DNA of 32,000 nucleotides from Xylanibacter ruminicola 23. GTDB taxonomy: Bacteria; Bacteroidota; Bacteroidia; Bacteroidales; Bacteroidaceae. Below are positions 5,085 through 28,336 of this stretch, in pieces. The translations under genes were made by a program, and so were the position numbers. Position 1 is the stretch's first letter, and the number at the start of each line of letters is the position of its first letter. The notes beneath the pieces were generated by a model. It was not told the DNA's origin, ran no database searches, and was given only the letters and a program-made list of their open reading frames with translations. The stretch covers positions 2,250,001 through 2,282,000 of the forward strand of contig NC_014033.1 of assembly GCF_000025925.1 (NCBI RefSeq), written 5' to 3'.

Positions 5085-5092
5085 TAATTTTG
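5085..5092 (+). promoter_or_regulatory. -7 promoter box TAatTTTG of susC-like unit 1
   Basis: The context is cataattttgcacc, ~55 nt upstream of ATG 5146. The same box context (TAnnTTTGCA) occurs upstream of units 2 and 3. Confidence 0.55.
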
Positions 5093-5145
5093 CACCTTAT
5101 CAGAGTTAATATTACAAACGTATAATTAAACAAGAGAGTGAATTT

Positions 5146-8100: not shown

Positions 8101-8403
8101 ACCAACAGCGACATTCCTCGTTTCCAGTATGGCGACCAGTACTCTGCCTACAGTTCTGACCGTTGGCTCACCAATGCCAGCTATCTGAACTTCCAGTCGT
8201 TCACTGTTGGCTACACAGTACCTAAGAAGCTCGTTACCCCACTTGGCATCAGCAACATCCGCGTTTATGCTGCGGGCGAGAACCTCTGCTTCTGGTCAGC
8301 TCGTAAGGGCTTCGACCCACGCTACTCTTACAAGAGCACAGCTTCTACCAACGTTTATTCACCTGTACGCACAATCTCAGGTGGTGTTCAGCTGACATTC
8401 TAA
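5146..8403 (+). CDS. SusC/RagA-family TonB-dependent outer-membrane transporter (unit 1, 1085 aa)
   Basis: It has a signal peptide, then a carboxypeptidase-regulatory-like N-domain (TGTVLSQEDGQPIIGAAVKVVGTSTG), a TonB box/plug region (DEVIVVAFG...), and a terminal ...GGVQLTF. A susD-like gene follows directly. Confidence 0.95.
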   Translation: MKKSLTMLMVSLFLFVGTALAQTKITGTVLSQEDGQPIIGAAVKVVGTSTGMLTDVNGKFSLTLPEGKKSLTISYLGFESKTVNAKNGMRVFLKADAQVVDEVIVVAFGQQKKSAFTGSAAVVNSEDLKKHTVSNVTNALAGSVAGLQLRGGSGAPGAGNAEISIRGISSLYSETTPLVIVDGAPYPASLSNIPAEDIESVSVLKDAASAALYGARGSSGVIIITTKKGQKDQTKINVDVKWGANSRAVQEYDKITDPAQFYEAYYSQLYNYGYYGQGMSNAAANQWANSTMLNHLGYNIYTVPEGQQLIGLDGKINPSATLGRKYTDENTGETYYMTSDDWADAAYKTALRQEYNVSISSGNEKASFYASLGHLDEDGIIEYSSYKRTTARIKADYQVKPWMKLAANVGYVHSKQYSNPNMSTDWGSTNLMYYTSYIAPIYPIYVRVIDPATGQPVIRTDENGNPHYDYGVPGTNYHGASRGFLQTGNPLGSNRYNETYNIGNQLNGNFSLDINILKNLKFNATSTIILGQTSYSWYDNALYGPKVVANGELKKEQINTLRQNHVQTLTYAQDFGLHSVTLMAGHEYWNQTSRDLTGLAQGGFSADIKELNAFAGKNQAQVTSYTNEYNVEGYFANAQYSYDDKYFGSASFRRDASSRFAKDKRWGSFWSVGGAWIISKEKFMQSTKGWLDMLKIKASIGQQGNDNTSSFAYVDTYSLTPASSTQMSPSFRQIGNPDITWETLTNANIGLEFGLFKNRIQGSIDFYYKKTTDLLFWLSIPESAGTRGYYGNVGDIRNQGIEFSLTANIIRSKLVDWSVSANISHNATKILSLPDSKIGENGGFYESNYWYTVGGPLNNYMNYAYAGVNDKGEALYYYDEDLSPAGGKVSTNVISKPGTKKSGTTTLIGEASRYTDNGSTLPKAFGGFSSNLRVGDFDASVSFDYQIGGKVYDSGYAKLMTPASSSSDAGYNYHKDILKAWSPTNTNSDIPRFQYGDQYSAYSSDRWLTNASYLNFQSFTVGYTVPKKLVTPLGISNIRVYAAGENLCFWSARKGFDPRYSYKSTASTNVYSPVRTISGGVQLTF

Positions 8404-8423
8404 ATTATAAAGGAGAGAAGAAT

Positions 8424-10109
8424 ATGAAAAATAAGATATTATCAATCATAGCAGCTGGCGCACTGATGACAGGCGCAACAAGCTGTATCAAGGAGATTGA
8501 CCCACAGACAAGTTACGCCACAAAGGATCAGGTGGCTAACGCTCCAGGTGCTTTCGACAACGCCGTTAGCGCCATCACATCAACACTCGCCGGACAGTTT
8601 GTTTACGACAGTGGCGACACTCGTGCTAACGACTTCGGACTGCCTGCATTCTTCCTGATGCGCGACGTTTCTGGTCAGGACATTGCTTATCCATACATCA
8701 ACTGGTTTGGTGCTTGGTATGGTGCCGACCACCTGGGTCCAAGCTGGGCTAACTCACAGTACCCCTGGACTTACTACTTTAAGTGGATTAAGAGCTGTAA
8801 CGAGGTTATCTCGCTGGCTGGCGAGGAACCCGATGCCGATAAGAAGGCTGGCGCAGGTCGCGCTTACTTCTATCGCGCATACTTCTATCTCGATCTGGCC
8901 CGCATGTTCGCTCAGAAGCCTTATGGTGCTGACAAGAATTCGGAGACAGTTCCCATCGTGACAGAGAAGACAGCTGTTGCCGACCTGGCAAACAACCCAC
9001 GTGCCACTAACGAGGAGATGTATCAGTTCATCCTGAGCGACCTCGACAAGGCCGAGGAATATCTGGCTGGTTACAAACGCGAGAACAAGTATGTACCCGA
9101 TCAGAGCGTCGTTTACGGTATGAAGGCCCGTGTATATCTTGACATGCAGGATTGGGCAAATGCCGAGGCTTATGCCAAGAAGGCTCAGACAGGTTATACG
9201 CTGATGAGTGCCGACGAGTACACCGATCAGGAAACTGGTTTCAACACACCTAACGGTGCCTGGATGCTGGGACTTACCTATAAGAGCGACGATCCTAACA
9301 TCACTAAGAACGACGGTGACTCAAGCTGGGGTTCAATGATGTGTATCGAGATCGACCCTGTAGCTTCTGGTTGCGGTTACGCAGCTAACTACGGTCAGCC
9401 ATTCTGCATCGACTACCACTTGTATCAGACAATCCCTGCAACCGACTGCCGCAAGAAGTGCTACGTTGACTTTGCTATCGACGATATGGCCACTCGTGCC
9501 GAGAAGTTAGAGGCCCTCTCTGCTTACAGTGCACACCCCGATTGGCTGCTCGATGGTTCAGGTACAGCCGCTCATGGTAGAGGTTACATCTATACCGTTG
9601 GTGGTCTGCCTCTGAAGTTCCGTGTTGCCGGTGGCGAGGCTGGTCGTGCTAACCAGTACATCGGTTGGGTAGTAGCAGTACCTATGATGCGCGTAGAGGA
9701 GATGTACCTGATTGAAGCCGAGGCTGCTGGTATGCAGAACGAGGCTCGTGGTATCGAGTTGCTGACCAAGTTTGCTAAGACTCGCGACGCCAACTACGAG
9801 TATGGCACTCACAACGAGGCTTACTACAACACCTCTACCTCTAAGTTCCAGAACGAGTGCTGGTGGCAGCGTCGTGTTGAGTTCTGGGGCGAGGGCTTGG
9901 CTACATTCGACATCAAGCGCCTCCAGAAGGGTATCATCCGTAGCTATGCAGGTACAAACCACGCCGACCAGTACCAGTGGAACGTAGAGACCACTCCAGA
10001 ATGGATGAATCTGTGTATCGTACAGACAGAGACTAACTACAACAATGCTTGTACCAACAACCCAGAGCCAATTGCTCCATCAGGAAACTCTGCTCCATAC
10101 GCTTGGTAA
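8424..10109 (+). CDS. SusD/RagB-family outer-membrane lipoprotein (unit 1, 561 aa)
   Basis: It has a lipobox (LMTGATSC), sits 20 nt after susC, and has SusD-like TPR-type helices (RAYFYRAYFYLDLARMF, EEMYLIEAEA). Confidence 0.9.
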   Translation: MKNKILSIIAAGALMTGATSCIKEIDPQTSYATKDQVANAPGAFDNAVSAITSTLAGQFVYDSGDTRANDFGLPAFFLMRDVSGQDIAYPYINWFGAWYGADHLGPSWANSQYPWTYYFKWIKSCNEVISLAGEEPDADKKAGAGRAYFYRAYFYLDLARMFAQKPYGADKNSETVPIVTEKTAVADLANNPRATNEEMYQFILSDLDKAEEYLAGYKRENKYVPDQSVVYGMKARVYLDMQDWANAEAYAKKAQTGYTLMSADEYTDQETGFNTPNGAWMLGLTYKSDDPNITKNDGDSSWGSMMCIEIDPVASGCGYAANYGQPFCIDYHLYQTIPATDCRKKCYVDFAIDDMATRAEKLEALSAYSAHPDWLLDGSGTAAHGRGYIYTVGGLPLKFRVAGGEAGRANQYIGWVVAVPMMRVEEMYLIEAEAAGMQNEARGIELLTKFAKTRDANYEYGTHNEAYYNTSTSKFQNECWWQRRVEFWGEGLATFDIKRLQKGIIRSYAGTNHADQYQWNVETTPEWMNLCIVQTETNYNNACTNNPEPIAPSGNSAPYAW

Positions 10110-11208: not shown

Positions 11209-12420
11209 ATGGATGCATTATTTAGAAAAAGCGACCGTTTACTGGCCAATACCAGCACAGAGATTGTACGCGAAATAGCAAATACAATCCATTGGAACGC
11301 CCAGCTAATTAGCATTATCGGTGCAAAAGGTGTGGGCAAGTCAACGCTCATTAAGCAGTATATCAAACAGAACTACGAACCTGGCGACAGGAGGGTTTTA
11401 TACTGCTCAGCTGATACTGTCGACTTTTCAACGCGCACACTGGTGGAACTAGCCGAAGAGTTTACCGTAAGAGGCGGCGAGCTGCTAGCCATCGACGAAA
11501 TCCACAAGTACAAATCGGGCAATACCGACTGGAGTCGTGAAATAAAGGAAATATACGAACTCTATCCCGACCTGAAGTTGATAGTAAGCGGATCATCACT
11601 ACTTAAACTAAAAGAAGGCGATGCTGACCTGTCACGACGAGCCGTAAAATATACACTGGCAGGATTGTCGTTTCGCGAAGCTTTACGTTTTTATCATGGA
11701 TTGGAGTTCGAAAAATGGACGTTAGACGACATTCTGAAGCACCCTTACGATTTATGGCAAACGGTGTCGACTAAGTGCAAGCCCAACGCACTGTTTAAGG
11801 AATATCTGAAAAAAGGCTACTACCCCTTTCTACTTGAAGGCGAGGGCGAGTATCACACAAAAATAGAGCAGGTGGTAAACTATATTATTGAAACAGAATT
11901 ACCCCAGATATGCAAGGTTGACGTGGCCAATGTAAGAAAACTGCAGGCACTTGTGGCGATGATATGCAGCGAGATACCTTTTGCACTAAATGCCAACCGA
12001 ATTGCCGCAGCCCTTGAAATTGGTCGCGACACGGTGGTGGAATACCTGAAATACCTGGGAGATGCCAAAGTATTAAATCTGCTTTACTCTGAAAAAAAGA
12101 AAATAGGCAAGCTCTCGAAACCCGATAAGGTATATCTCGAAAACCCCAATATCATGTATGCCCTAGCCCCTACCAAGGTTGAAATAGGAACACTACGCGA
12201 AACCTTTGCCGTGGGCAGTCTCACAGAGTCGCATAATGTTGAATACGGAAAAGCGCAAGGTGATTTTCTTGTTGACTCGAAGTACACATTCGAGATTGGC
12301 GGTCGCAGCAAGGATTTCTCGCAGATAGCAGGTATAAAGGATTCGTATATTTTTGCCGACGACTGGGATATGCCCGATGGTGCAAAACTCCCACTCTGGA
12401 TGCTAGGTTTCTTATATTAA
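11209..12420 (+). CDS. AAA+ ATPase of the COG1373 / AAA_14-DUF4143 type (403 aa)
   Basis: Walker A is GAKGVGKST and Walker B is LLAIDEIHK. The C-terminal region GDFLVDSKYTFEIGGRSK resembles the D...ExK nuclease-like tail of this family. Confidence 0.8.
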   Translation: MDALFRKSDRLLANTSTEIVREIANTIHWNAQLISIIGAKGVGKSTLIKQYIKQNYEPGDRRVLYCSADTVDFSTRTLVELAEEFTVRGGELLAIDEIHKYKSGNTDWSREIKEIYELYPDLKLIVSGSSLLKLKEGDADLSRRAVKYTLAGLSFREALRFYHGLEFEKWTLDDILKHPYDLWQTVSTKCKPNALFKEYLKKGYYPFLLEGEGEYHTKIEQVVNYIIETELPQICKVDVANVRKLQALVAMICSEIPFALNANRIAAALEIGRDTVVEYLKYLGDAKVLNLLYSEKKKIGKLSKPDKVYLENPNIMYALAPTKVEIGTLRETFAVGSLTESHNVEYGKAQGDFLVDSKYTFEIGGRSKDFSQIAGIKDSYIFADDWDMPDGAKLPLWMLGFLY

Positions 12421-12703: not shown

Positions 12704-13252
12704 TCAATCTCCGATTGGCTCGTGACTGCCGCCACCCTGGTTGCCGCCGGTGTTCTGACCGTTGCCACCGGTGTTACCGTTGTCGGTGGTGTTGCCGCTC
12801 TCAGGGTCCTCGATGTCGCTGCTGTCGCCACTGGTTACGCGCTTCAGTACGGTGCCGTCCTCGTCAAGGCAGGTAATCTGGATGCTGGTGTTCTTCAGCT
12901 CGTCCTTCACATCCACCGATGGGGTGAACACAATGCGACGGGTGGTAATCAGTCCGGTCTTCACGTCATCGAGCTTCTCAACGGCCTTGGCGCGCACGCC
13001 GAATCGCATGGTTCCCAGTCCGGGCACGGGTACCGAATGGCCCTCGGTGGCCCAGGTACGGATAACGGCGCCTGCTGCCTCCCATGCAGCCTTGATAACA
13101 CCTGCGCTAATGCCCGAGTGGGTGGCTGCCTCGGTAAACACCTTCTTCTCGGCGATGGCGCTGTACAGGTCGGGGCGCATCACGAAACGCTTGGCCCCAG
13201 GGTTCTTGCCGATCTTAAGCTCTCGGCGCTGTGCAATAACTTTGATACTCAT
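12704..13252 (-). CDS. Bacteroidales-type HU-like DNA-binding protein with G/N-rich acidic tail (182 aa)
   Basis: MSIKVIAQRRELKIGKNPGAKRFVMRPDLYSAIAEKKVF...VPVPGLGTMRF resembles the HU/IHF-fold 'putative DNA-binding protein' common in Bacteroides islands. The tail is NTTDNGNTGGNGQNTGGNQGGG. Confidence 0.75.
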   Translation of the reverse strand: MSIKVIAQRRELKIGKNPGAKRFVMRPDLYSAIAEKKVFTEAATHSGISAGVIKAAWEAAGAVIRTWATEGHSVPVPGLGTMRFGVRAKAVEKLDDVKTGLITTRRIVFTPSVDVKDELKNTSIQITCLDEDGTVLKRVTSGDSSDIEDPESGNTTDNGNTGGNGQNTGGNQGGGSHEPIGD

Positions 13253-13791: not shown

Positions 13792-13799
13792 TATATTTG
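13792..13799 (+). promoter_or_regulatory. -7 promoter box TAtaTTTG for the MNT/HEPN operon
   Basis: The context is gtatatttgcacc, 22 nt upstream of ATG 13821. Confidence 0.55.
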
Positions 13800-13820
13800 C
13801 ACCATACAAAGCAATTAGTT

Positions 13821-14147
13821 ATGAACAATAGTAAAGTTATCGACAGTATTAAGCAGGTGGCCGAAAGGGTCTTACCCAAGGGTAGTCTGTTGTATCTCTA
13901 TGGGTCGCGTGCACGTGGAGACTGGCACGACGGTTCTGATTGGGATCTTCTGCTGATACTTGATAAGCCACGTCTTGAGCATGAGGATTTTAATAAGTAT
14001 TCCTATCCGTTTGTTGAAATGGGATGGGATATAGGCGAGGATATTCGTCCCCATGCATATACTAAGCAAGAGTGGTTTGATGGTCCACATGCTATGTTCT
14101 ATTATAATGTAGAAGAAGACAAACAAGTATTGTATGGAACTAAGTGA
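13821..14147 (+). CDS. Minimal nucleotidyltransferase (MNT-type, antitoxin-like) protein, 108 aa
   Basis: It carries the pol-beta NTase signature LYLYGSRARGDWHDGSDWDLLLIL. I moved the start to ATG 13821 because the TTG at 13797 lies inside the promoter box. Confidence 0.85.
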   Translation: MNNSKVIDSIKQVAERVLPKGSLLYLYGSRARGDWHDGSDWDLLLILDKPRLEHEDFNKYSYPFVEMGWDIGEDIRPHAYTKQEWFDGPHAMFYYNVEEDKQVLYGTK

Positions 14148-14541
14148 TAACGAGAGATCAACCATCGTACGCATGGAAATGGAGAAGGCACGCAAAACTT
14201 TTGCCGATATGGAATTTTGTGCCAAAGAGCAGAAATGGGAGGCTGCTGCCAATCGCCTGTACTATGCTTTGTTTCATGCGGTATCAGCCTTACTTATCAG
14301 TGGCGGTCAGAATGTAAAAAGTCATCGTGGCATCATGTCTCTTTTCGGACAGCATTATGTTCGTACAGGACTATTTACGAGCGAAGATGGTTCACTCCTC
14401 TCTGACCTTGTGATTATGCGCGATAACGCAGACTATAACCTATTCTTTGAGGCGAACGAGGAGAAAATCACTCCCTATATTGAGCCCACAAGACTGCTGA
14501 TTGATAAGATAGCAGAATTTGTTATTCCTAAAAACTCTTAA
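14134..14541 (+). CDS. HEPN-domain protein (135 aa), partner of the MNT gene
   Basis: It overlaps the MNT gene by 14 nt. NRLYYALFHAVSALLISGGQNVKSHRGIMSLF and VIMRDNADY are typical of MNT-associated HEPN proteins. Confidence 0.8.
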   Translation: MELSDNERSTIVRMEMEKARKTFADMEFCAKEQKWEAAANRLYYALFHAVSALLISGGQNVKSHRGIMSLFGQHYVRTGLFTSEDGSLLSDLVIMRDNADYNLFFEANEEKITPYIEPTRLLIDKIAEFVIPKNS

Positions 14542-14580
14542 TTATAACCTGCAGTTTTTGGTGGGTGCGAAGGTTTTTAT

Positions 14581-14588
14581 TATCTTTG
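14581..14588 (+). promoter_or_regulatory. -7 promoter box TAtcTTTG for the S24 peptidase gene
   Basis: The context is tttattatctttgcagcc. It lies inside the GTG-extended ORF, which argues for the downstream ATG 14667 as the true start. Confidence 0.5.
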
Positions 14589-14666: not shown

Positions 14667-15479
14667 ATGAGAAATTTTAGTAGCATCGGTCAGTGGCCGA
14701 TGGAAATGGTGTGCGACACACCCGTGCCTTACTACGAAGTGGGAGTTAGTTGTGGACTGCCTGGCGAAATGGGGGAGCTGCCACCCGAGATGGTGCTGCT
14801 GCCCAGCATGCTGACGCGTGGCCGGCAAGTGTTTATCGTGGATGCCGATGGCGACTCGATGACCGGCGTGGGCATTTACAGTGGTGATGCGCTGCTGATA
14901 GAGAGTACACAGCGGGTGCACTGCGGCGAAGTGGTGATGGTGAGCATCGACGGCGAGGAGCTGTTGAAGGTGTATTACGTTGACGACACGGGGCGCCACT
15001 GGCTGTTGGCCGCCAACCCGAAGTACCAGCCACGCGAACTAACGGCCGACATGAATGTACGCATCTGCGGGCGCATGGTGTGCAACCTGAGTGCGCCGCA
15101 CGTATCGGTAAAGCACTGTGGCGAAGTGGTACGCCAGTTTAAAGCCAAGCAGAAGCAGCACCAGCCCGACATGTATGAGCGCCTGACCGAAGCCGTTATC
15201 CAGTGCAGTCATCTGTTTTGGGCAGCATCGGCCTGGGCAGTGGTTTTCGGTGTACTGCGCGATAAATACAGTTATGACAAGCCAGTTGCCGAGTTTGAGC
15301 GTATGGCCCAGGCCTTAAAGCTACCTGCTACGTTTAGGTTTGTATGTGGCGAAGGCAGTGTGCAGCGCACCATCAGTAATCATGAGTACATGCGAAAGAG
15401 TATCGACAAGTGGGAGGAGCAAGGTGCTGCCGACCGCGAACTGAAGCTGATGACGGTTTTAATTAAAGAATTGGCTTAG
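14667..15479 (+). CDS. S24 (UmuD/LexA-type) self-cleaving peptidase domain fused to a ~130-aa C-terminal domain of unknown function (270 aa)
   Basis: It has GDSM (Ser nucleophile), a Lys in EELLKVYY, and a Cys29-Gly30 candidate cleavage site (VGVSCGLPGE) like UmuD Cys24-Gly25. There is no N-terminal HTH. The C-terminal part QCSHLFWAASAWAVVFGVLRDKYSYDKPVAEFERMAQ... is unrecognised. Confidence 0.75.
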   Translation: MRNFSSIGQWPMEMVCDTPVPYYEVGVSCGLPGEMGELPPEMVLLPSMLTRGRQVFIVDADGDSMTGVGIYSGDALLIESTQRVHCGEVVMVSIDGEELLKVYYVDDTGRHWLLAANPKYQPRELTADMNVRICGRMVCNLSAPHVSVKHCGEVVRQFKAKQKQHQPDMYERLTEAVIQCSHLFWAASAWAVVFGVLRDKYSYDKPVAEFERMAQALKLPATFRFVCGEGSVQRTISNHEYMRKSIDKWEEQGAADRELKLMTVLIKELA

Positions 15480-15481
15480 TT

Positions 15482-15565
15482 TTACCGAACCTGTTACCGA
15501 ACTTCGGTAAGTATTAGTACCAAAGTTACCGAAACCTACAACACTTACCGAAAACTGTTACCGAA
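15482..15565. promoter_or_regulatory. Array of six TTACCGAA sites (one inverted, forming a 17-bp perfect palindrome)
   Basis: TTACCGAA occurs at 15482, 15494, 15526, 15545 and 15558, and TTCGGTAA at 15503. Positions 15494-15510 read TTACCGAACTTCGGTAA. The array starts 2 nt after the S24 stop codon. Confidence 0.7.
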
Positions 15566-15598
15566 TGCGTTCCAAGAAATTGGAGCGCATTATTTTTT
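15565..15598 (+). terminator. Rho-independent terminator after the S24 gene and site array
   Basis: The stem is ATGCGTTCCAA-gaaa-TTGGAGCGCAT (one G-T pair), followed by TATTTTTT. Confidence 0.65.
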
Positions 15599-15602
15599 GC
15601 CA

Positions 15603-15610
15603 TACTTTTG
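15603..15610 (+). promoter_or_regulatory. -7 promoter box TActTTTG for the antirepressor gene
   Basis: The context is gccatacttttgcagcg. It implies a ~210-nt leader that contains palindromic element copy 2. Confidence 0.45.
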
Positions 15611-15692
15611 CAGCGTGATTCAGTTCACGAGTGTTCTTTGACTTACTGCCACACCAACCCGACTCGGAATCGGCCGAGCGGATTTATTCTTA

Positions 15693-15826: not shown

Positions 15827-16591
15827 ATGGAAACAATGATTATTAAAACAGTAAACGAGAACCAACACATGATGACTTCGCTGGAAATAGCTGAAGTAAC
15901 CGGTAAGCAGCACTGTCACGTAATGGAGGCCATCCGAAAAATGGAACCCGCGTGGCAGAAAGTTAATCAATCAAATTTTCGATTGATTGAATATACCGAC
16001 AGTCGAGGTCGACTGATGCCCTGCTACCAGCTAACCAAGACCGAGACGCTCTACATCGCCACCAAGTTTAACGACGAGGCCCGCGCCCGACTCGTTCTGC
16101 GTTGGGAAGAACTGGAACGCGAGCGGATTATTTTTGGCACGGATGACACGGCCTTTTTAAAAAAGGACACGGCTTATATCGATGAAGAAAGCAGCGTCTC
16201 TCTAAAAGAGAGCCGTGTTAATCCGTGCCTAAGAAAACTTCCATCGTTGGGCGTTCAGAAACAGATACTGGCGATGGCGGATGAGATTGTGGGTACGGGA
16301 CTGCGCATGCTGAACGAGCCTGCCGAGGATACACTCACCGCCACGCAGGTGGCCAAGACGTTTAACATGAACACCCGCGACTTTAATGCCGTGCTGGCCG
16401 ACATGAACATTCAGTACCGCGCCCACGGCCGATGGCACCTGGCCGAACACCTGCTGGGTAGGGGCTACACCGCCGAACGTACACACATCGACTACTCGCT
16501 GAAAGGCAAGCGCAAAATCAAAGTGTACATGACGTGGACCATGGCCGGACTGAAGTACCTTAACTCGCAATTGGGATACCCTAACCTTTAG
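15827..16591 (+). CDS. Rha-family N-terminal domain fused to a KilAC/ANT-like antirepressor C-terminal domain (254 aa)
   Basis: MTSLEIAEVTGKQHCHVMEAIRKM...YQLTKTETLYIATKFNDEARARLVLRWEELE is Rha-like. The C-terminal TATQVAKTFNMNTRDFNAVLADMNIQY...GLKYL is KilAC-like. The linker is encoded by repeat copy 3. Confidence 0.75.
   Translation: METMIIKTVNENQHMMTSLEIAEVTGKQHCHVMEAIRKMEPAWQKVNQSNFRLIEYTDSRGRLMPCYQLTKTETLYIATKFNDEARARLVLRWEELERERIIFGTDDTAFLKKDTAYIDEESSVSLKESRVNPCLRKLPSLGVQKQILAMADEIVGTGLRMLNEPAEDTLTATQVAKTFNMNTRDFNAVLADMNIQYRAHGRWHLAEHLLGRGYTAERTHIDYSLKGKRKIKVYMTWTMAGLKYLNSQLGYPNL
16136..16229. repeat. Palindromic 94-bp element, copy 3, in frame inside the antirepressor CDS (residues 104-134)
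   Basis: GGCACGGATGACACGGCC...TCTCTAAAAGAGAGCCGTGTTAATCCGTGCC translates as GTDDTAFLKKDTAYIDEESSVSLKESRVNPC with no stop. Confidence 0.9.
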
Positions 16592-16628: not shown

Positions 16629-16709
16629 GGCCTCGATTAAGCGAGAGCAGAGCCAAGCTTGCTTGAGCTTTGCCGAGTGTGAGAGGGCTCGATACGAAGT
16701 ATCAACATT
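16629..16709 (+). repeat. 81-bp repeat, copy A, ending 5 nt before the lysozyme ATG
   Basis: GGCCTCGATTAAGCGAGAGCAGAGCCAAGCTTGCTTGAGCTTTGCCGAGTGTGAGAGGGCTCGATACGAAGTATCAACATT matches 19491-19571 at 80/81 positions. The single difference is 16678 T versus 19540 C. Confidence 0.95.
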
Positions 16710-16714
16710 TTACT

Positions 16715-17179
16715 ATGCAGATTACAGACACACTTTTACAGAAATTGATGGAGATGGAGGGATGCCGACTAAGCGCTTATCGCGACGAGGGCGGCGTGCC
16801 TACCATCGGCTACGGACACACACGCGGTGTGCGCATGGGCGACCGCATCAGCCCCCAGCAGGCTCGCGACTGGCTGCTACAGGATGCCACCGAGGTGATG
16901 CGACAGGTGCGACGCCTGCACGTGGCACGCACCGAGGCGCAACTAGAGGCACTCACATCGTTTGCCTTTAACGTGGGCATCGGACGGCTGAAGCAGTCAA
17001 CCCTGCTCAAAACCATCCGCCAAGGCGGCAGCAAGGCTGCCATCCAGCGCCAGTTTAAACGATGGGTGTATGCCGGCGGTAGCAAGTTGCCCGGTTTGGT
17101 AGCCCGTCGCCAATGGGAGGCCGAACACTTCTTCGCCCCCAGCTACCCAACGGATGACGAAATCATCGACCGGGTGTGA
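16715..17179 (+). CDS. GH24 phage-type lysozyme (endolysin-like, 154 aa)
   Basis: The T4/lambda-type lysozyme signature is LMEMEGCRLSAYRDEGGVPTIGYGHTRGV, followed by ALTSFAFNVG. I moved the start to ATG 16715 because the track ORF starts at a TTG inside the 81-bp repeat. Confidence 0.85.
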   Translation: MQITDTLLQKLMEMEGCRLSAYRDEGGVPTIGYGHTRGVRMGDRISPQQARDWLLQDATEVMRQVRRLHVARTEAQLEALTSFAFNVGIGRLKQSTLLKTIRQGGSKAAIQRQFKRWVYAGGSKLPGLVARRQWEAEHFFAPSYPTDDEIIDRV

Positions 17180-17207: not shown

Positions 17208-17216
17208 AGATTGGCT

Positions 17217-19475
17217 ATGAGCACACACATTATTTATTTAAAGGACGGGGTGAAAATGATGCGCCCCGTAACCACCCGCGCAGAGTATATGGCCCTGCGC
17301 GGCAGTAACGAACAGCAGCAACTGATGGCCGCCATACGCAGCGGCAACGAGACGTTGAAGCACCGGCTGGTGCAGATGAACTACAGTTGTCTGCCCAATG
17401 CCGACGGCACACTGCGCGGCAGCACCCGTATGAGCAATACCGTGGGTATGGATATCGACCACCTATCGGCCGAAGAGATGCCCGCCGTTCGCGAGCGCAT
17501 CCTGGACAAGAAGGATGAGCTGGGACTAGGGATGCTTGAGGAGAGTGCCCGCGGCTGTGGCTACCACCTGGTGTTTACCCGACGGCCGCACATGTCGCAG
17601 GTAGAGAACCTGCAGTGGGCCGCCCAGCTGCTAGGCGTGGACTACGATGCCCAGGCCAAGGACATCACCCGCGTGTTCTTCACCACCGGCACCGAGCAGC
17701 TTATCTATCTGGATGATGCCATCTTTGAACTCCCGTCCTCGGAAAGTTGTGACAAGGGACAGGGCCCAGTCACATTCTGTGACAGGTACCAGTCCCCAGT
17801 CACAAAGACTGATTCCGTTGACAATTTTCAAGAAGGAAAAATCCTAAAGTCCTGTATTCCGTTGCAAAAAGATTACAACGGCATGGCTTTCTCGGATATT
17901 ATCGCAAAGTATTGGGAGCTGTTTAACGGTGGCAAGCTGCCGGTGGTGGGCGATAGGAACGCACTCACCTTCGAGTTGGCCGTTACCCTGCGCTCTATCT
18001 GCGGCTACAGTCTGGAGGGCCTGCAGGCCATCGTACCCAACTACTGGGCTGCACCCGATGGCACCTGCACCGATGCCGACCGCACCGAATATCTGCACAC
18101 ACTGGAAAACGCCCTGAAAGAGCCCCGCCGCGGCATGCCCCTGCGCCTGAAACAGGTATTGCAGGCACTCAAGGAGCAGCAAGGTGTAAAGGCCTGCGGG
18201 GGTACCGTAAGCACGCCTCCACCCATGCCCAAGCGGTTGCCGCCATTGATAAAACTGCTAACCCGCAACGTGCCGTGGTACTACAAGCCCGCTGTGGCCA
18301 GTGCCGTGTTTCCTGCCCTGGGCGCCCATCTGCATGGCGTACACTTCCGCTATTGGGACAACGTGGATCACGAGGCCACGTTTATGAACCTGCTGGTGGG
18401 CCGACAGAGCGTGGGTAAGGGCTCGATCAAAAAGCCCATCGAGTATATCATGGAGGACATACGCCAGCACGACCTGCTCAGTCGCCAGCGCGAGGCCGAG
18501 TGGAAGCAGAAGAACCCCACTGGCAAGCAGAAGAAGGACCCGCGCCCCGCCGACATCTGCATTCAGATGCTGATAGACAACCTGACCGACGCCGTGTTTA
18601 ACCAGCGCGTGGTGGATGCCAACAACAACGGAGAGCGCTACATCTACACCATTGTAGACGAGGTAGAGGCTCTGAAGAAGGTGACATCGAGCCATAAGGC
18701 CGACGAGGTGGGACTGCTGATACGAAAGGCTTTCGACAACTCGATGGCAGGTCAGGAGCGTGTGGGTGCCGACAGCGTATCGGGCATAGCACCGCTGCGC
18801 TGGAACTTCAACGCCAGCACCACCCCACCCAACGCGCGCAAGTTCTTTTATAAGATGGTGAACGATGGCACGGTGAGCCGACTGGATGTGGCCACCATCA
18901 TCCGTCCCATCGAAGACGACGACGAGGCACCCATCCTGGGCATCTACGACGACCGTTTTGCCGCCGAGCTCAAACCCTATATCGACCGTCTGGATGCTGC
19001 CAACGGACTGATAGAGTGCCCGCAAGCCCGCAAGCTGGCACTTGACCTGAAGCAGGAGAATGCCGACACCGCCCGCTTGTACGAGAGCGAGGCCTACCGT
19101 GTGCTGTCGTATCGTGCCAACGTGATAGCCTGGCTTAAGGGTATGGTGCTGTATGTGGCCCATGGCTACCGGTGGGACAAGCAGATAGCTGAGTTTGTGC
19201 GCTGGAGCGAGCAGTATAACCTATGGTGCAAGATGCTGTACTTTGGAACCCAGCTTGAGAAGGAGCTGAACGACGAGCAGGAACTGCAGCGCCACTCGGG
19301 TCCCCAGAACCTGCTGGAGCTGCTACCCGATGAGTTTACCCGCGAGCAGTATCTGCAGATGCGCCAGCAAGCCGGCCGCCCCGGTCCCGGCGACAGCACC
19401 CTGCGCACCTGGCAAACCCGCGGCCACATAGCTTTTGATGAAACGGCAGGCCGTTTCCTCAAGATTAAACATTAA
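17217..19475 (+). CDS. VirE_N (BT4734-like) domain plus DUF3987-like P-loop region: putative primase-helicase (752 aa)
   Basis: The N-terminal region (MNYSCLPNADGTLRGSTRMSNTVGMDIDH...GYHLVFTR...ITRVFFTTG) resembles the VirE N-domain family of Bacteroides. It has a P-loop-like VGRQSVGKGS and a Walker B-like YIYTIVDEVEAL. I prefer ATG 17217 over TTG 17211. The stop codon lies inside a heptamer array. Confidence 0.7.
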   Translation: MSTHIIYLKDGVKMMRPVTTRAEYMALRGSNEQQQLMAAIRSGNETLKHRLVQMNYSCLPNADGTLRGSTRMSNTVGMDIDHLSAEEMPAVRERILDKKDELGLGMLEESARGCGYHLVFTRRPHMSQVENLQWAAQLLGVDYDAQAKDITRVFFTTGTEQLIYLDDAIFELPSSESCDKGQGPVTFCDRYQSPVTKTDSVDNFQEGKILKSCIPLQKDYNGMAFSDIIAKYWELFNGGKLPVVGDRNALTFELAVTLRSICGYSLEGLQAIVPNYWAAPDGTCTDADRTEYLHTLENALKEPRRGMPLRLKQVLQALKEQQGVKACGGTVSTPPPMPKRLPPLIKLLTRNVPWYYKPAVASAVFPALGAHLHGVHFRYWDNVDHEATFMNLLVGRQSVGKGSIKKPIEYIMEDIRQHDLLSRQREAEWKQKNPTGKQKKDPRPADICIQMLIDNLTDAVFNQRVVDANNNGERYIYTIVDEVEALKKVTSSHKADEVGLLIRKAFDNSMAGQERVGADSVSGIAPLRWNFNASTTPPNARKFFYKMVNDGTVSRLDVATIIRPIEDDDEAPILGIYDDRFAAELKPYIDRLDAANGLIECPQARKLALDLKQENADTARLYESEAYRVLSYRANVIAWLKGMVLYVAHGYRWDKQIAEFVRWSEQYNLWCKMLYFGTQLEKELNDEQELQRHSGPQNLLELLPDEFTREQYLQMRQQAGRPGPGDSTLRTWQTRGHIAFDETAGRFLKIKH

Positions 19476-19588: not shown

Positions 19589-19957
19589 ATGGAACACATT
19601 GATAACACACAAGAAACGTTTGTGGCACTGTGGCGGCTGTTGCGCCGCACGCGCCGCTACTGCCATCTGCACTGCAAGCGCTTTTGCATCCGCAGGGTAC
19701 TGCAACTATGGTTTGGTGGCGAGGCCACCCCCGAGTTTATCTGGCAAGTATGCCACCTTTGCTGTCAGGCCGGTTGGGACCAGCTCCCACCGCCTGGCCT
19801 CTACCCGCGCCCGCATCGCGAACTGCTGCGTGCCATCGTGGCCGTGCGCACAGGCATCAGCTACTACCAGATTGACCTGCGCGCCCTCGACGCCGCCTAC
19901 ACCATCGCCTACCCCAAAAGCACACCACTGAACGTGAACAAAAAGAAGAAATCTTAA
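19589..19957 (+). CDS. Hypothetical Cys/Arg/Trp-rich protein (122 aa); a DUF4248-like role is possible from its position after the VirE-like gene, but sequence does not support it
   Basis: It is the longest of four overlapping ORFs in a GC-rich stretch. It is the only one preceded by the same 81-bp repeat plus heptamer leader seen before the lysozyme gene. I recognise no motif. Confidence 0.4.
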   Translation: MEHIDNTQETFVALWRLLRRTRRYCHLHCKRFCIRRVLQLWFGGEATPEFIWQVCHLCCQAGWDQLPPPGLYPRPHRELLRAIVAVRTGISYYQIDLRALDAAYTIAYPKSTPLNVNKKKKS

Positions 19958-20276: not shown

Positions 20277-23273
20277 ATGAAACAAAGACTAACGTTGTTT
20301 TTCGTCAGCTTGTTCCTGTTTGTAGGCACAGCGCTGGCACAGACAAAAGTTACTGGTACAGTACTCTCACAGGAAGACGGACAGCCCATCATCGGTGCTG
20401 CCGTTAAGGTGGTTGGTACAAGTACAGGTATGTTGACCGACGTGAACGGACGATTCACCGTAGCCATGCCCGAGGGTAAGGATCAGCTCGAAGTGAGCTA
20501 TCTGGGCTACCAGAGCAAGACCGTTAAGGCCAAGGCCAACATGCGCGTTTTCCTGAAGACCGACGCTCAGGTGGTTGACGAGGTGGTTGTGACCGGTTAC
20601 GGTTCGCAGCGCAAGGCTTCGTTCACAGGTGCTGCCTCGAAGGTTGACGGCGCAGTAGTAGAGAAGAAGAGCGATGCCAACTTTGTGAAGGCACTCGAGG
20701 GAACCATCACAGGTGTACAGATGAACAACTCATCGAGCATGCCTGGTACATGGGGTTCGGTTTATGTTCGTGGTCGCGCCTCGCTGAACTCAGGCACACA
20801 GCCACTCTACGTGATCGACGGTGTGCCTGTAAACTCAGACTACGACACCATGAGCAGCAGCTCTAACAACGCCACCGACCCAATGGCATCTATCAACCCA
20901 ACCGATATCGAGAGCGTAACCGTTCTGAAGGACGCTGCCGCTACCGCTATCTACGGTGCACGTGCCGGTAACGGTGTGATCGTGATCACCACCAAGAAGG
21001 GTGCCAAAGGCCGCCACAACGTAAATGTCGACATCAAGCAGGGCTTTACTGCCATGGCTAACAACAACATGAAGTTTGCCAATGCCGAGCAGACCATGAG
21101 CCTCTATGCCGACGGTTACGTGGCTCGTTACGGTGGTACCAAGGAAGCCCGTATTGCCGACCTGACCGATATGTACGAGTGGGACGGTAAGACCAGCACC
21201 GACTGGATGGACGAGATTTCGCGCAAGGGTTACTACCAGGATTATAACATCAACATCAGTGGCCAGACCGGCGAGACCAACTACTATGTCAGCGCAGGCT
21301 ACCTGGACACTAAGGGTATTATCATCGCTTCTGACTTTAAGCGCTACTCTGGCCGCATCAACGTCGACAGCAAGTTCAAGATGTTCAAGTTTGGTGCCAA
21401 CCTGTCGTACGCTCACTCTATCAAGAACGGCTTCTCACAGTCAACTAGTGGTTCGTTCACCAATGCCACTGTAGGCGCCATCAGCTCAATGCAGCCTTTC
21501 TACCCCGTTTACAACGAGGACGGAACTTACTCAAACGTTGACTCTTACAACCCATTTGCTGTATGGGACAAGGAGCTCGGCGATATCAACGAGGATAAGA
21601 CAACAACCCTGAGCGTAAGCCCATACCTGCAGGTTGACTTCGGCAAGGGTATCTACTTCAAGAGCACATTCGGTGCCAACATCTATGGCCTGCGCCAGTA
21701 TCAGTACTGGAGCGCTATCTACAACCCACAGGGTATGGACTATCCCGGTCTCGGTCAGCAGTACAACTCGCAGACCACCACACTTACATGGAACAACATC
21801 CTGGGTTGGAACTACACCTTCGGCCAGCAGCACAACCTCAGCCTGATGCTGGGTCAGGAGATGCAGCGCAAGGATTACTGGTATGAGTACTACAGCGGCG
21901 ACAACTTCCCATTCGCATCTGCCGGTATGAGAGACCTCTCGACCGTAGGTCACTGGAACGATTCTGAGTACTACAAGAAAGAGGCTCGTCTGGCATCATA
22001 CTTCGGCGATGCTCACTACTCTTTCGCCGACAAGTATTATCTGTCAGCTTCACTCCGTCACGACGGTTCTTCGGTATTCGGCTCTAACAAGCGCTGGGGT
22101 ACATTCTGGTCGGTAGGTGGCAAATGGCGCTTCACCGGCGAGAAATTCCTTGAGGGCAACAACACCCTTACCAACGGTACATTCCGCGTATCTTACGGTA
22201 CTGTAGGTAACCAGGATATCGGTTTCTACGCTGCACGTGGTTTCTATGTATCAGGTAGCAACTACCACGGTGCATCAGGTATGACTCCAGAGTCGATCTC
22301 TAACTCTGAGCTCACATGGGAGGTTTCTAAGAAGTTCGACATTGGTGTTGACCTTCAGTTCTTCAACCGTTTGAACGTTACATTGGACTACTATAACGAG
22401 AAGACTAGCGACGCCCTGTTCAAGGTTCCCCTGTCAAGAACTACCGGTATGACCGAGACTTATCAGAACATCGGTTCTATCCGCAACAGCGGTATCGAGC
22501 TGTCGATCAACGGTACCATCCTTCGCAACAAGGATCTTAACTGGACCGCTTATGCCAACCTGACTTGGAACAAGAACAAGGTTATTGCCCTTTCAACCGA
22601 CAAGCCTATCGAGGGTTCATACACCATCATCGAGGCTGGTCGCCCCTACCGTCAGTTCTACATGAAGGAGTATGCAGGTGTTAACCCCGAGAACGGTAAG
22701 GCACAGTGGTACAAGAATGCCGAGGGCGACGAGCTGACCGAGAACTACACCGAGGCAGCCAAGCGCTACGTAGGTTCGGCCGATCCTAAGGTGTTCGGTG
22801 GTTTCGGTACAACAGTAACATGGAAGGACTTCGACGCCAGCATGACCTTCAACTACCGTCTGGGTGGCAAGGTATTCGATTCAGGTGCCCGCTTCACCGG
22901 TTTCGGTATGTCGTTCCGCACACCACTCGAGGACGTTGCCCTGAACTCTTGGACCGAGGACAACAAGAATGCCAAGTACCCACAGTACATCTACGGCGAT
23001 CCATATAGCAGCACTCAGAACTCAACACGTTTCCTCTACAGCGGCAACTTCCTGCGCCTGAGCAACGTATCAGTTGGTTACACACTGCCAAAGAGCATCA
23101 CAACAAAGGCTCTGATCGAGAAGGCTCGCATCTATATCTCTTGCGACAACCTCCACACTTGGGCTGCAAGCGACTTCGTAGGTTACAACCCTGAGACATT
23201 TGAGAGCGGTGTTATTGCATGGCAGTATCCTGCAGTTTCTACTTATGTAGCTGGTGTTCAAATTACTTTCTAA
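20277..23273 (+). CDS. SusC/RagA-family TonB-dependent transporter (unit 2, 998 aa)
   Basis: It shares the N-terminal architecture of unit 1 (LFLFVGTALAQTKVTGTVLSQEDGQPIIGAAVKVVGTSTG), has the TonB box DEVVVTGYG, and ends ...AGVQITF. Confidence 0.95.
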   Translation: MKQRLTLFFVSLFLFVGTALAQTKVTGTVLSQEDGQPIIGAAVKVVGTSTGMLTDVNGRFTVAMPEGKDQLEVSYLGYQSKTVKAKANMRVFLKTDAQVVDEVVVTGYGSQRKASFTGAASKVDGAVVEKKSDANFVKALEGTITGVQMNNSSSMPGTWGSVYVRGRASLNSGTQPLYVIDGVPVNSDYDTMSSSSNNATDPMASINPTDIESVTVLKDAAATAIYGARAGNGVIVITTKKGAKGRHNVNVDIKQGFTAMANNNMKFANAEQTMSLYADGYVARYGGTKEARIADLTDMYEWDGKTSTDWMDEISRKGYYQDYNINISGQTGETNYYVSAGYLDTKGIIIASDFKRYSGRINVDSKFKMFKFGANLSYAHSIKNGFSQSTSGSFTNATVGAISSMQPFYPVYNEDGTYSNVDSYNPFAVWDKELGDINEDKTTTLSVSPYLQVDFGKGIYFKSTFGANIYGLRQYQYWSAIYNPQGMDYPGLGQQYNSQTTTLTWNNILGWNYTFGQQHNLSLMLGQEMQRKDYWYEYYSGDNFPFASAGMRDLSTVGHWNDSEYYKKEARLASYFGDAHYSFADKYYLSASLRHDGSSVFGSNKRWGTFWSVGGKWRFTGEKFLEGNNTLTNGTFRVSYGTVGNQDIGFYAARGFYVSGSNYHGASGMTPESISNSELTWEVSKKFDIGVDLQFFNRLNVTLDYYNEKTSDALFKVPLSRTTGMTETYQNIGSIRNSGIELSINGTILRNKDLNWTAYANLTWNKNKVIALSTDKPIEGSYTIIEAGRPYRQFYMKEYAGVNPENGKAQWYKNAEGDELTENYTEAAKRYVGSADPKVFGGFGTTVTWKDFDASMTFNYRLGGKVFDSGARFTGFGMSFRTPLEDVALNSWTEDNKNAKYPQYIYGDPYSSTQNSTRFLYSGNFLRLSNVSVGYTLPKSITTKALIEKARIYISCDNLHTWAASDFVGYNPETFESGVIAWQYPAVSTYVAGVQITF

Positions 23274-23292
23274 TTAATAAGAAGATAACAAT

Positions 23293-24768
23293 ATGAAAAA
23301 TAAAATTATAACAGGTGCCATGGCACTCACCCTGACAATGGGATTTGTTAGCTGCGGTGATGACTTCCTTGAAACCAAATACTACAAAGGAATCGATGTA
23401 GAAACAGGTCTTTCAAGCACAAGCAATGTTTCAACCGCACTGGGTGGCGTATATTACAACCTTTTCGAAAGATATTTTGCAGGTAACTACGCAACCACTA
23501 TCGGCGACGTTCCAACCGATATCTCATACTGGAACACCAAGACCGGTCACTGGGACAAGATCTACCAGTACACATTCCAGGACACTGAGTCGTATCTCAG
23601 CTACATCTGGGAGTATGGTTACAAGATTGTTGACAACTCAGCCCGCGTGATTGTAGCAGCCGACAAGCTTTATGCCGACGCTACTGCCGACGACAAGAAG
23701 ACACTCGACCTGTGCCGCGCCGAGGCTTACGCCCTGCGTGCATACGCAAACCTTAAGCTGGTGAACGTTTTCGCACATCAGATCAAGGTTAATGGCAACG
23801 ATTTCTCGGCCAAGCCCGGTATCGTTATCAGCGACACACCTATCCCTGCCTTCACCGAGGTTAGCCGCGCCACTGTAGGCGACAGCTACAATATGATTGT
23901 GAGCGACCTGAAGAAGTCGCTGGAGTACTTCGCTGCTGCCGGTGGCGACCGTGGCGACAAGTGCTACTTTGGTGTAGCTGCTGTCGAGGGTCTGCTGGCA
24001 CGTACATACCTTTATATGGAGAACTGGGATGGTGCCATCAGCAGCGCTAAGGCAGCCCTGAGCGATGCCGGCACACCTGCACTGGCCTATACAAAGGCCG
24101 ACTATAAGGCCCTGTACAACGGCGGAAGCTCAAACACCGAGAGCATGTTCTATCTCGACATCAACGCCAGTCAGAACTGGAGTGCCAACTCTTGCGGTAC
24201 ACTGTGGACTACCTACAACTTCAGCCCAAGCCCCAAGCTGCTGGCTATGTATGCCGACACCGACGTACGTAACGCCATCATGGGCATGGACGCAAGCTCA
24301 ACCGAGACAGCCCCTGTATTCGCTGGTGGTAAGTTCGCTTCTTACGGTTCAGGCAACCCCGCCCACGCTACCAACTACCTGATTAACGCTCCTGAGATGT
24401 ATCTGATTATCGCAGAGAGCTACATCAAGAAGAACGACGTAGCCAAGGCTCAGGAGGCTCTGCTGCCCGTAGCTAAGCGTAACACAGCCATCGCTACAAC
24501 AGCCGATCTGCCCAGCACCGCTGCCGATCTCTACACATTCCTGAAGGACGAGCGCGCACGCGAGCTCTTCCAGGAGGGTCTGCGCCTGTACGACCTGCGC
24601 CGCTGGGGCGATCCCGCTCAGGTAGAGGCCTACAATGCACCTAAGATCCTGTTCCGTTCTAACAATTTCAACATCTCTGAATTTGTATTCCCCATCCCTA
24701 ACGATGAGATCAATGCAAACTTTGGTGTAACACAGAACGAGGGTTGGGCATCTAATCTCCCTAAGTAA
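23293..24768 (+). CDS. SusD/RagB-family lipoprotein (unit 2, 491 aa)
   Basis: It has a lipobox (TMGFVSCGDD), SusD-like helices (CRAEAYALRAYANLKL, PEMYLIIAESY), and RELFQEGLRLYDLRRW near the C-terminus. Confidence 0.9.
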   Translation: MKNKIITGAMALTLTMGFVSCGDDFLETKYYKGIDVETGLSSTSNVSTALGGVYYNLFERYFAGNYATTIGDVPTDISYWNTKTGHWDKIYQYTFQDTESYLSYIWEYGYKIVDNSARVIVAADKLYADATADDKKTLDLCRAEAYALRAYANLKLVNVFAHQIKVNGNDFSAKPGIVISDTPIPAFTEVSRATVGDSYNMIVSDLKKSLEYFAAAGGDRGDKCYFGVAAVEGLLARTYLYMENWDGAISSAKAALSDAGTPALAYTKADYKALYNGGSSNTESMFYLDINASQNWSANSCGTLWTTYNFSPSPKLLAMYADTDVRNAIMGMDASSTETAPVFAGGKFASYGSGNPAHATNYLINAPEMYLIIAESYIKKNDVAKAQEALLPVAKRNTAIATTADLPSTAADLYTFLKDERARELFQEGLRLYDLRRWGDPAQVEAYNAPKILFRSNNFNISEFVFPIPNDEINANFGVTQNEGWASNLPK

Positions 24769-28312: not shown

Positions 28313-28336
28313 TGATTATTAAAGGAATATTGAAGT

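Follow-up and report, generated by a model that had tools for sequence, protein, structure and literature searches.

In a 32-kb window of the Xylanibacter (Prevotella) ruminicola 23 genome (the whole stretch of 32,000 nucleotides analysed here) we have studied a gene whose 270-residue product begins with an S24 peptidase domain and ends with a second domain; it is referred to below as the S24-first gene. It is followed by a six-site array of the 8-bp repeat TTACCGAA and by the predicted promoter of an operon for an antirepressor-type protein, a lysozyme and a primase-like large protein. With modest confidence we propose that the S24-first gene encodes a two-module transcription regulator, the C-terminal domain of which binds the array and controls the operon promoter, and which is gated by a UmuD-style N-terminal self-cleavage. 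The N-terminal module is a bona fide S24 domain with intact catalytic residues and the C-terminal part is a separate, previously undescribed domain. In the sequences compared, the repeats track this C-terminal domain and not the S24 module. From these features we infer the DNA binding by the C-terminal domain, the self-cleavage, its trigger and the sign of the regulation.

In the proposed mechanism, the C-terminal ~100 residues would bind the 8-bp repeats of the array, and the array-bound protein would control the operon for the Rha/ANT antirepressor, the lysozyme and the PrimPol/helicase protein. After DNA damage, filaments of RecA on single-stranded DNA (RecA*) would stimulate cleavage at Cys29-Gly30. 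This cleavage would free the 29-residue arm alone, leaving the S24 core on the putative DNA-binding domain, and might alter oligomerisation and the cooperative occupancy of the six phased sites, or the stability of the protein, as in the conversion of UmuD to UmuD'. On cleavage UmuD changes both its oligomer state and its stability.

The C-terminal domain and the repeat array

The AlphaFold model of the C-terminal part alone (pLDDT 86, pTM 0.73) consists of a basic linker helix followed by about six more helical segments. The earlier note on this stretch had called the domain unrecognised, and our searches agree, as they turned up no known family of unrelated function. No family match for residues ~140-270 was obtained in Pfam, NCBIfam, PHROGs or PADLOC, the best Foldseek matches of the model had E values of 3.9 against the PDB and 2.2 against BFVD, and a profile of the domain gave 0 matches at E<=10 among PDB sequences. 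Weak, sub-threshold matches to DUF7469 (E~0.007) were seen in two relatives.

The C-terminal domain is an independent module, usually without any S24 domain. A profile that mixed this kind of domain (type A) with an alternative one (type B, see below) was searched against 1.84 billion representatives and gave 364 cluster representatives at E<=1e-3 and 152 at E<=1e-10, the type-A core motif being present in at least 83 of the 149 top matches. Most matches are stand-alone proteins of ~150-170 aa. The family shares the core FW.xS.WAVV.C..RD / FER / C..G.[IV]Q.T.SN..YM / KW, and all of its motifs are present in the window protein (LFWAASAWAVV..LRD, FER, C..G.VQRTISNH.YM, KW). Among 101 sampled relatives, 21 carry an N-terminal S24 domain and four a HIRAN domain (31 bits in protein P0093, cut-off 24.7). 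In three genome loci (L022-L024) a stand-alone version fills the exact slot of the window gene.

The S24 module in turn is found on more than one C-terminal domain. Protein P0011 is 72% identical to the window protein over the first 60% of its length and then continues into the alternative domain, and type B domains (RHWLGPCRVLMD...ELRRMAVD) are present in S24 proteins with 47-72% identity to the window protein in the S24 part. Homology between the two types finds no support in hhalign, where the probability of 1.5% is not significant, and type B is treated here as analogous or very remote, that is, as a separate family. Type B genes have the same downstream layout with A(A/C)TCCCA repeats, whether they are fused to S24 (L025, L034) or to KilA-N (L040) or stand alone (L039). 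Since the same S24 module occurs on type A and type B domains, each with its own array, it is a portable input, fused to two or more output domains, and since it serves two unrelated output domains, a generic switch seems likelier than a specific masking of the C-terminal domain. The recombination break between the S24 and C-domain cassettes appears to lie in or near the linker helix (residues 148-165); loci L013 and L014, for example, share 98% identity in the S24 part and 74% in the C-terminal part, and their arrays differ.

Two further groups of relatives were noted. In L042 (gene 5001-6350), P0051 and P0093, proteins of ~450 aa with a HIRAN domain carry a type-A domain at their end; the L042 gene has an HU-HIG gene upstream, a TTTCTGA x6 array at its stop codon and a 760-aa primase-like gene downstream, and a restriction-modification pair (RE_HindVP and a DNA methylase) has been inserted just upstream. 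Protein P0195 (loci L032-L033), a stand-alone and distant type-B-like relative (E=3.6e-5), adjoins a BT4734-like gene and a pair resembling a diversity-generating retroelement (bAvd and a reverse transcriptase); no repeat array was seen downstream of it.

The array in the window begins two bases past the stop codon of the S24-first gene. All six copies of TTACCGAA in the 32 kb lie within its 84 bp, compared with 0.7 expected by chance, and none of 100 shuffles reached six copies. The single inverted copy forms a palindrome with copy 2. Relative to the hairpin that follows, the sites are found at -85, -73, -64/-62 (inverted), -41, -22 and -9. Across loci these positions are identical for the TTACCGAA type and for a second repeat type, (A/G)TTTCTGC, and the spacers between the sites are not conserved. 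The arrays of L014 and L016 are hybrids, with TTTCTG, TTTCCGAA and GTTACCGA copies at the standard positions; they look like intermediates or recombinants of the two repeat types. A search for upstream operators found no TTACCGAA site 5' of the S24-first gene, even at one mismatch, and autoregulation through such operators was rejected on this ground.

The protein and the array also covary. In 22 genome loci only four protein columns split TTACCGAA from TTTCTG loci, namely 208, 231 and two tail positions, the codons of which overlap the first repeats in the DNA. Addition of metagenome loci gave 69 distinct C-terminal sequences, of which 66 could be classified (three arrays were unclassifiable). 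Residue 231 is K or S in 44/44 TTACCGAA cases and T or A in 22/22 TTTCTG cases, with no exceptions. This residue opens the otherwise invariant helix VQRTISNH. As the rule predicts, TTTCTGA repeats accompany a T at this position (GT-IQKSLSNN) in a HIRAN-fused relative, and relatives with the altered helices VNRTICDH, VSRTMSNH and IHRTFNHH carry other repeats. The repeat type would have had to change at least 15 times on the tree of the S24 part, compared with three times on the tree of the C-terminal part.

The position of the array relative to the promoter is regular, too. The Bacteroidetes sigma-ABfr promoter consensus is TTTG / TAnnTTTG, as summarised in PMC7366714, and a TAnnTTTG box is found at the matching offset in all loci. 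By hand count, the distance from the last repeat to this -7 box is 37 nt in the window, 37 in L046, 36 in L044 and 38 in L025, and the array spans roughly -135 to -52 relative to the predicted operon promoter. Between the two lies the hairpin, the stem base of which is overlapped by 2 nt by the last repeat and the 3' arm of which carries a -33-like ATTGG (15579-15583), 19 nt ahead of the -7 box. The hairpin with its T-run fits a terminator of the S24-first gene. Pairing is kept in 97% of the cells across 14 variants of it, and on the + strand there are three wobble-compatible pairs and one compensatory change (UA->CG). Conservation of the hairpin region (15567-15590) goes well beyond the needs of a terminator; L046, which lacks the hairpin, still has the central CAAGAnATTGG of this region at an unchanged distance from the -7 box. 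This sequence probably doubles as a promoter (-33 region) element or as a protein-binding site.

This geometry points to a complex that acts at the DNA level and is locked to the promoter, and it bears on two other readings of the array. The first takes the repeats as the iterons of a small replication origin, with the C-domain protein as the initiator that would work together with the PrimPol/helicase of a cryptic satellite-like replicon, and with the S24 module coupling initiation to damage. The cassette does carry a PrimPol-like large protein, two sets of short direct repeats around a spacer resemble the iteron origins of SaPI, P4 and lambda, HIRAN fusions would suit a function at the replication fork, and covariation of binder and repeat is equally expected of an initiator. 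However, an origin needs no fixed spacing to a promoter, whereas the distance stays at 36-38 nt in very divergent loci. Furthermore, the array measures just 84 bp, an AT-rich unwinding element is lacking apart from the terminator T-run, no mobility gene lies near the cassette, and searches of IMG/VR and of phage genomes gave no related locus. We consider an origin to be distinctly unlikely.

The second reading places the repeats in RNA. In the window and in most loci the array lies between stop codon and hairpin, that is, in the 3' untranslated region (UTR) of the mRNA, where bound protein might control termination, read-through into the operon or mRNA stability. The variants of the hairpin, including G.U wobble, fit pairing of the + strand RNA, the last repeat runs into the base of the stem, and the coding strand carries five of the six copies. 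Against this, in both repeat types the inverted copy has the exact 8-mer on the opposite strand, which suggests recognition of double-stranded DNA, the distance to the -7 box is conserved, and Rfam gave no match. In L046, moreover, the array follows the gene's own terminator and precedes the promoter, hence it belongs to neither transcript; it is still 37 nt from the -7 box with the ATTGG offset kept. Since this array is promoter-spaced and outside the 3' UTR, an action at the level of DNA is favoured, and control through RNA seems very unlikely.

The 5' leader of the operon contains a further conserved motif, TTCTTTGACTTACTGCCACA in the window (consensus TCTTTGACWTAYTGAYACA), which is common to loci with differing C-domain types. 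It is found some 20-40 nt past the transcription start, which is predicted to lie near 15615-15618. Its possible roles are those of an RNA element or of an operator bound by a different factor. Neither the array nor the leader has a match in Rfam, and a known RNA family was rejected for both.

For the regulator that we propose, activation of the operon is favoured over repression, as a lean only, because the sites lie upstream, their phasing is fixed and the -33 element, with TTGG in place of TTTG, is weak. The occurrence of the same C-terminal domain behind HIRAN, a 3'-DNA-end-binding module, looks like an independent fusion to a damage sensor and is counted in favour of the proposal.

Several points weigh against it. 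The position of the sites upstream of the core promoter leaves either sign of regulation possible, and the transcription start, the promoter and the terminator are predicted only. The way in which N-terminal cleavage would change the activity is speculative, since the putative DNA-binding domain stays attached. Foldseek and profile searches detected no resemblance of the C-terminal domain to a known DNA-binding fold, and its net charge, as we counted it from the sequence, is close to zero. The domain and the array lie within 300 bp, flanked by the conserved S24 module on one side and the conserved hairpin and promoter on the other. Such flanks are targets for recombination, and cassette-like co-inheritance, with no binding at all, could account for much of the covariation. 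On the C-part tree the 66 sequences come down to about three independent switches, to which the distant relatives are added.

The same lack of fold similarity, near-zero charge and tight linkage would suit a C-terminal domain that does not bind nucleic acid at all and serves as a protein-interaction or effector module, for instance for the ANT protein or the primase, while another factor occupies the array. For such a factor, Rha/ANT, BT4734-like and HU-HIG proteins were considered as array binders and rejected, none being constantly present and none covarying with the repeat type. Indeed no other gene of the cassette is constant. Rha is missing in the array loci L004, L009, L012 and L019 and was not found in L008, L017 and L018, HU-HIG is absent near L025, and BT4734-like proteins fall to 24% identity or vanish while the TTACCGAA array is unchanged. 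Position 231 alone follows the repeat type without exception in 66 sequences, and type B domains always occur with A(A/C)TCCCA arrays, whatever their N-terminal partner (S24, KilA-N or none). A C-terminal domain without nucleic-acid binding is therefore judged unlikely.

The S24 module

The open reading frame (ORF), its 270-aa product and all the motifs quoted in the earlier note are present in the sequence, and its description of a UmuD-like S24 module placed first, with Cys29-Gly30, Ser and Lys, was confirmed. Residues 27-138 match Pfam PF00717 (Peptidase_S24) with E=3e-20 and 72.5 bits, the cut-off being 23.3. In the full-length AlphaFold model (pLDDT 79) the best Foldseek match of the S24 part is UmuD' (1umu; E=4.5e-7, TM(target) 0.72, rmsd 2.0), followed by the C-terminal domains of LexA and lambda cI. 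An alignment of 23 homologues, with identities down to 27%, shows no variation at Cys16, Asp17, Val20, Pro21, Cys29-Gly30, Gly62, Ser64, Met65 and Lys101, nor in the cleavage-site region CDTPVP..V.CG of the N-terminal peptide. The earlier note had named a lack of conservation of Ser, Lys and Cys-Gly as a refuting result, and these residues are conserved. Cys29-Gly30 sits 35 residues before Ser64, and UmuD and LexA have about the same spacing between site and Ser. The Ser motif is present in 49/49 S24-fused relatives listed, the Lys could be found by a simple pattern in most of them, and most have Cys-Gly or Ala-Gly 35 residues ahead of the GDSM serine. Every feature of the S24 superfamily that can be computed from sequence or model (family threshold, Ser-Lys dyad, scissile-bond spacing and fold) was found.

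The term UmuD-like fits the layout of the S24 module only. The UmuD model NF007621 is the best NCBIfam match, and its score of 56.3 bits misses the threshold of 110; the LexA equivalog TIGR00498 (48.2 bits, cut-off 110.95) likewise misses its threshold and covers the S24 part alone. Besides the threshold, two features of UmuD are absent, namely a umuC partner and a single domain of about 140 aa. It could still be argued that the protein is an ordinary UmuD, an accessory subunit of polymerase V with a decorative extension, whose UmuC is encoded elsewhere; the best family match, the best structural match and the Cys-Gly site all belong to UmuD. However, a score of 56 bits is far from the cut-off of 110, and the S24 module is found on two different C-terminal domains. 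No Y-family polymerase gene (IMS/umuC) was found in the 18 window ORFs scanned, a set that leaves out the pair at 25121-29989 and short ORFs, or among the listed genes of the homologous loci L025-L047, in keeping with the earlier claim that there is no UmuC partner. What is conserved instead is synteny with the array and the ANT-primase cassette. We regard a plain UmuD as extremely improbable.

The domain order of LexA and cI, an N-terminal helix-turn-helix (HTH) or winged helix followed by S24, is not seen either. Only 15-60 variable residues precede the S24 domain, and residues 1-38 are disordered in the model. The conserved Cys-Gly site precedes both modules in the chain, hence cleavage there cannot part a DNA-binding domain from a dimerisation domain as in LexA and cI. 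The sole other Cys-Gly of the protein, Cys151-Gly152 in the linker, was considered as a second internal cleavage site and rejected because it is not conserved among the aligned homologues.

The extent of the N-terminal peptide depends on the start codon. A mechanical ORF list extends the frame 5' to GTG 14565, giving a version of 304 aa, which was rejected. ATG 14667 is favoured because all homologues begin MRN..., because L001 and L005 carry an in-frame stop just 5' of it, and because the predicted promoter at 14557-14588 puts GTG 14565 upstream of the likely transcription start. The database annotation of the protein is only "S24 family peptidase / LexA family protein".

The earlier note had read these features as a switch triggered by RecA* and the SOS response. 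Of that reading the catalytic residues of the S24 module and the link to the array and the antirepressor gene stood, and the latter proved to be conserved far beyond the window, with covariation between C-terminal domain and repeats. It needs revision in that UmuD-likeness is one of layout, that the C-terminal domain mostly occurs stand-alone and that the S24 module is shuffled between cassettes.

The cassette and its neighbourhood

Coordinates of the features are collected in Table 1. Synteny was followed in 24 genome loci, all from rumen Prevotellaceae, and in metagenome loci. In nearly all loci examined the order is the gene, the array, the hairpin with its T-run, TAnnTTTG, a gene for (Rha or Bro-N)+ANT and a large PrimPol/DUF3987 protein. 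The window, L001-L024, L029, L042, L044 and L046 all have the gene with a short-repeat array behind it and a TAnnTTTG promoter downstream of the array. This layout is kept for proteins that are only 33-45% identical, for stand-alone C-terminal domains and for HIRAN- and KilA-N-fused proteins. Most homologous loci keep the Rha/ANT gene in synteny, a few lack the antirepressor gene, and a lysozyme or M15 peptidase stands before or after the primase gene.

Table 1. Features of the S24-first gene, its repeat array and the surrounding cassette (positions in the window)
Feature	Position	Strand	Details
S24-first protein, coding sequence	14667..15479	+	270 aa; identical to WP_013065665.1 / ADE83683.1, Xylanibacter (Prevotella) ruminicola 23
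Predicted promoter of the S24-first gene	14557..14588	+	-33 TTTG (14557-14560) and -7 TATCTTTG (14581-14588), 20 nt apart; read from sequence
N-terminal peptide, predicted to be released	14667..14753	+	residues 1-29; Cys29 = 14751-14753, Gly30 = 14754-14756
S24 peptidase core	14745..15080	+	residues 27-138; Ser64 codon 14856-14858, Lys101 codon 14967-14969
Basic linker helix	15108..15161	+	residues 148-165, between the two modules; helix from AlphaFold model
All-helical C-terminal domain	15174..15476	+	residues ~170-270; pLDDT ~90
Proposed specificity positions	Ala208 = 15288-15290; Ser231 = 15357-15359	+	Ser231 opens the VQRTISNH helix; covariation with repeat type
Six-site TTACCGAA array	15482..15565	+	direct copies at 15482, 15494, 15526, 15545 and 15558; inverted copy 15503-15510
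Intrinsic-terminator-like hairpin	15564..15599	+	12-bp stem, GAAA loop (15564-15591), then T-run
-7 box TACTTTTG, predicted operon promoter	15603..15610	+	37 nt past last repeat; TAnnTTTG consensus per PMC7366714
Leader motif TTCTTTGACTTACTGCCACA (consensus TCTTTGACWTAYTGAYACA)	15634..15653	+	operon 5' leader; recurs in many type-A loci, type-B L034 and HIRAN L042
Rha (N-terminal) + ANT/KilAC antirepressor-type protein	15827..16591	+	first operon gene; PF09669 E=5e-22, PF03374 E=5e-12
Phage-type lysozyme	16670..17179	+	PF00959 E=8.5e-40; likely true start ATG 16715
BT4734-like / PrimPol-like large protein	17211..19475	+	DUF3987-type primase-helicase of this Bacteroidales cassette; syntenic homologues annotated DUF3987 or BT4734-like_N
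Conserved 122-aa ORF closing the cassette	19589..19957	+	syntenic in L001, L002, L004, L005, L013 and L016
HU-HIG family DNA-binding protein, divergent	12704..13252	-	PF18291 E=2.5e-13

Matches of homologues to the lysozyme begin at residue 13-16. The large protein has a weak match to BT4734-like_N (E=7.6e-4, below the cut-off) and one to PADLOC PrimPol (E=4e-5); this weak similarity is confined to its N-terminus, and nothing recognisable is seen across the remaining ~590 residues. The 122-aa ORF has no match in Pfam or PHROGs. HU-HIG is a frequent neighbour without being universal, and was found in L001, L002, L005, L019, L029, L042, L044 and L046.

Between the HU-HIG and S24-first genes lies a pair of overlapping genes resembling an MNT/HEPN toxin-antitoxin system, with a nucleotidyltransferase at 13797-14147, which matches the PADLOC candidate family PDC-S09, and a HEPN protein at 14134-14541. 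The pair is a recent insertion, since it is present in the window and L002 and absent from the otherwise near-identical L001 and L005. An AAA_14/DUF4143 ATPase (11209-12420; PADLOC candidate defence family PDC-S01, E=6e-28) adjoins the cassette, and ATPases of this type also flank L001, L005, L029, L037 and L040.

The window is a piece of Bacteroidales chromosome, with SusC/SusD pairs at 5146-10109 and 20277-24768 and a pair of similar size, outside the family scan, at 25121-29989. Family scans of the window ORFs found no integrase or other mobility gene near the cassette. A prophage or virus origin was rejected, as IMG/VR holds no related locus and phage genomes match the S24 part only. One 4.2-kb contig binned as 'Candidatus Saccharibacteria' (L003, JAEETK010000051.1) contains this Prevotella locus, array included, at 90% identity, and is most likely a binning contaminant.

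Comparison with known S24 proteins and array binders

Taken together, the loci might represent a modular Bacteroidales system in which a novel DNA-binding fold, a six-site array and an HU-HIG/antirepressor/lysozyme/PrimPol-helicase cassette are combined with interchangeable N-terminal damage sensors (S24 or HIRAN), and in which an activating UmuD-like cleavage leaves the regulator intact. We hold this full picture only tentatively, and rather doubt that all of it applies. What we rate as new is the proposed S24-gated regulator with its reversed architecture and new output domain; the S24 superfamily itself is known. No description of an S24-first regulator or of this C-terminal domain was found in the searchable literature on S24-first architecture, DUF3987 cassettes, HU-HIG neighbourhoods and HIRAN with S24.

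The domain family is sizeable, with at least 364 cluster representatives (type A and type B together) that have neither annotation nor a structural relative. Residue 231 (K/S with TTACCGAA, T/A with TTTCTG) offers a readable candidate for a recognition code, and the locus opens a way to study how a cassette for primase, lysozyme and antirepressor, found repeatedly in genomes and metagenomes of rumen Prevotella, is regulated. No SOS regulator is known for Bacteroidales (PMC8565304), so that any RecA*-responsive S24 regulator in this order would be of interest. If the full picture applies, the system would provide the first SOS-type input found in this order, from which LexA and the non-canonical LexA of Bacteroidetes are both reported to be absent.

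Binders of iterons and other multi-site arrays, such as lambda O, plasmid Rep proteins and the SaPI Rep origins, have in common with this system the short direct repeats at fixed spacing beside the gene of the proposed binder and a rapid co-evolution of binder and repeat. They differ from it in that the array described here is locked to a promoter at a fixed distance, and there is no similarity of sequence or fold.

UmuD/UmuD', a subunit of E. coli polymerase V, shares with the window protein the short N-terminal arm, a Cys-Gly 35 residues before the Ser and the Ser/Lys dyad. In both, only a short N-terminal peptide would be removed (a prediction for the window protein), a cleavage that may activate or remodel the protein rather than split it. 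In contrast to UmuD, the window protein has no UmuC partner, carries an extra C-terminal region of 130 residues and lies far below the UmuD threshold; the conserved genomic partners of its gene are the repeat array and the antirepressor-primase operon.

UmuDAb of Acinetobacter and the non-canonical LexA of Bacteroidetes (PMC8565304) resemble the proposed regulator as S24 proteins that act as damage regulators in lineages without LexA, whereas their DNA-binding domains are N-terminal and their operators palindromic. The non-canonical LexA proteins have N-terminal HTH domains and are reported to be absent from the order Bacteroidales (PMC8565304).

With LexA and lambda cI the window protein has in common an S24 self-protease joined to a putative sequence-specific DNA-binding module, repeated sites by the promoter of mobile-element-like genes and a likely RecA* input. 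It differs from them in its reversed domain order, with the cleavage site N-terminal to both modules, in a DNA-binding candidate that belongs to no recognised HTH or winged-helix family, and in six mostly direct repeats upstream of the -33 element in place of palindromic operators over the promoter. To our knowledge, the known S24 transcription regulators (LexA, cI, HdiR, UmuDAb and the non-canonical LexA of Bacteroidetes) all have the DNA-binding domain first and are all inactivated by cleavage that separates it from the dimerisation core. Should the full modular picture apply, the regulator would stay intact on an activating cleavage, a logic that has been described for no S24 transcription factor. 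The reversed order excludes the mechanism of LexA, and the S24-first protein would thus represent a second route from S24 self-cleavage to a transcriptional output.

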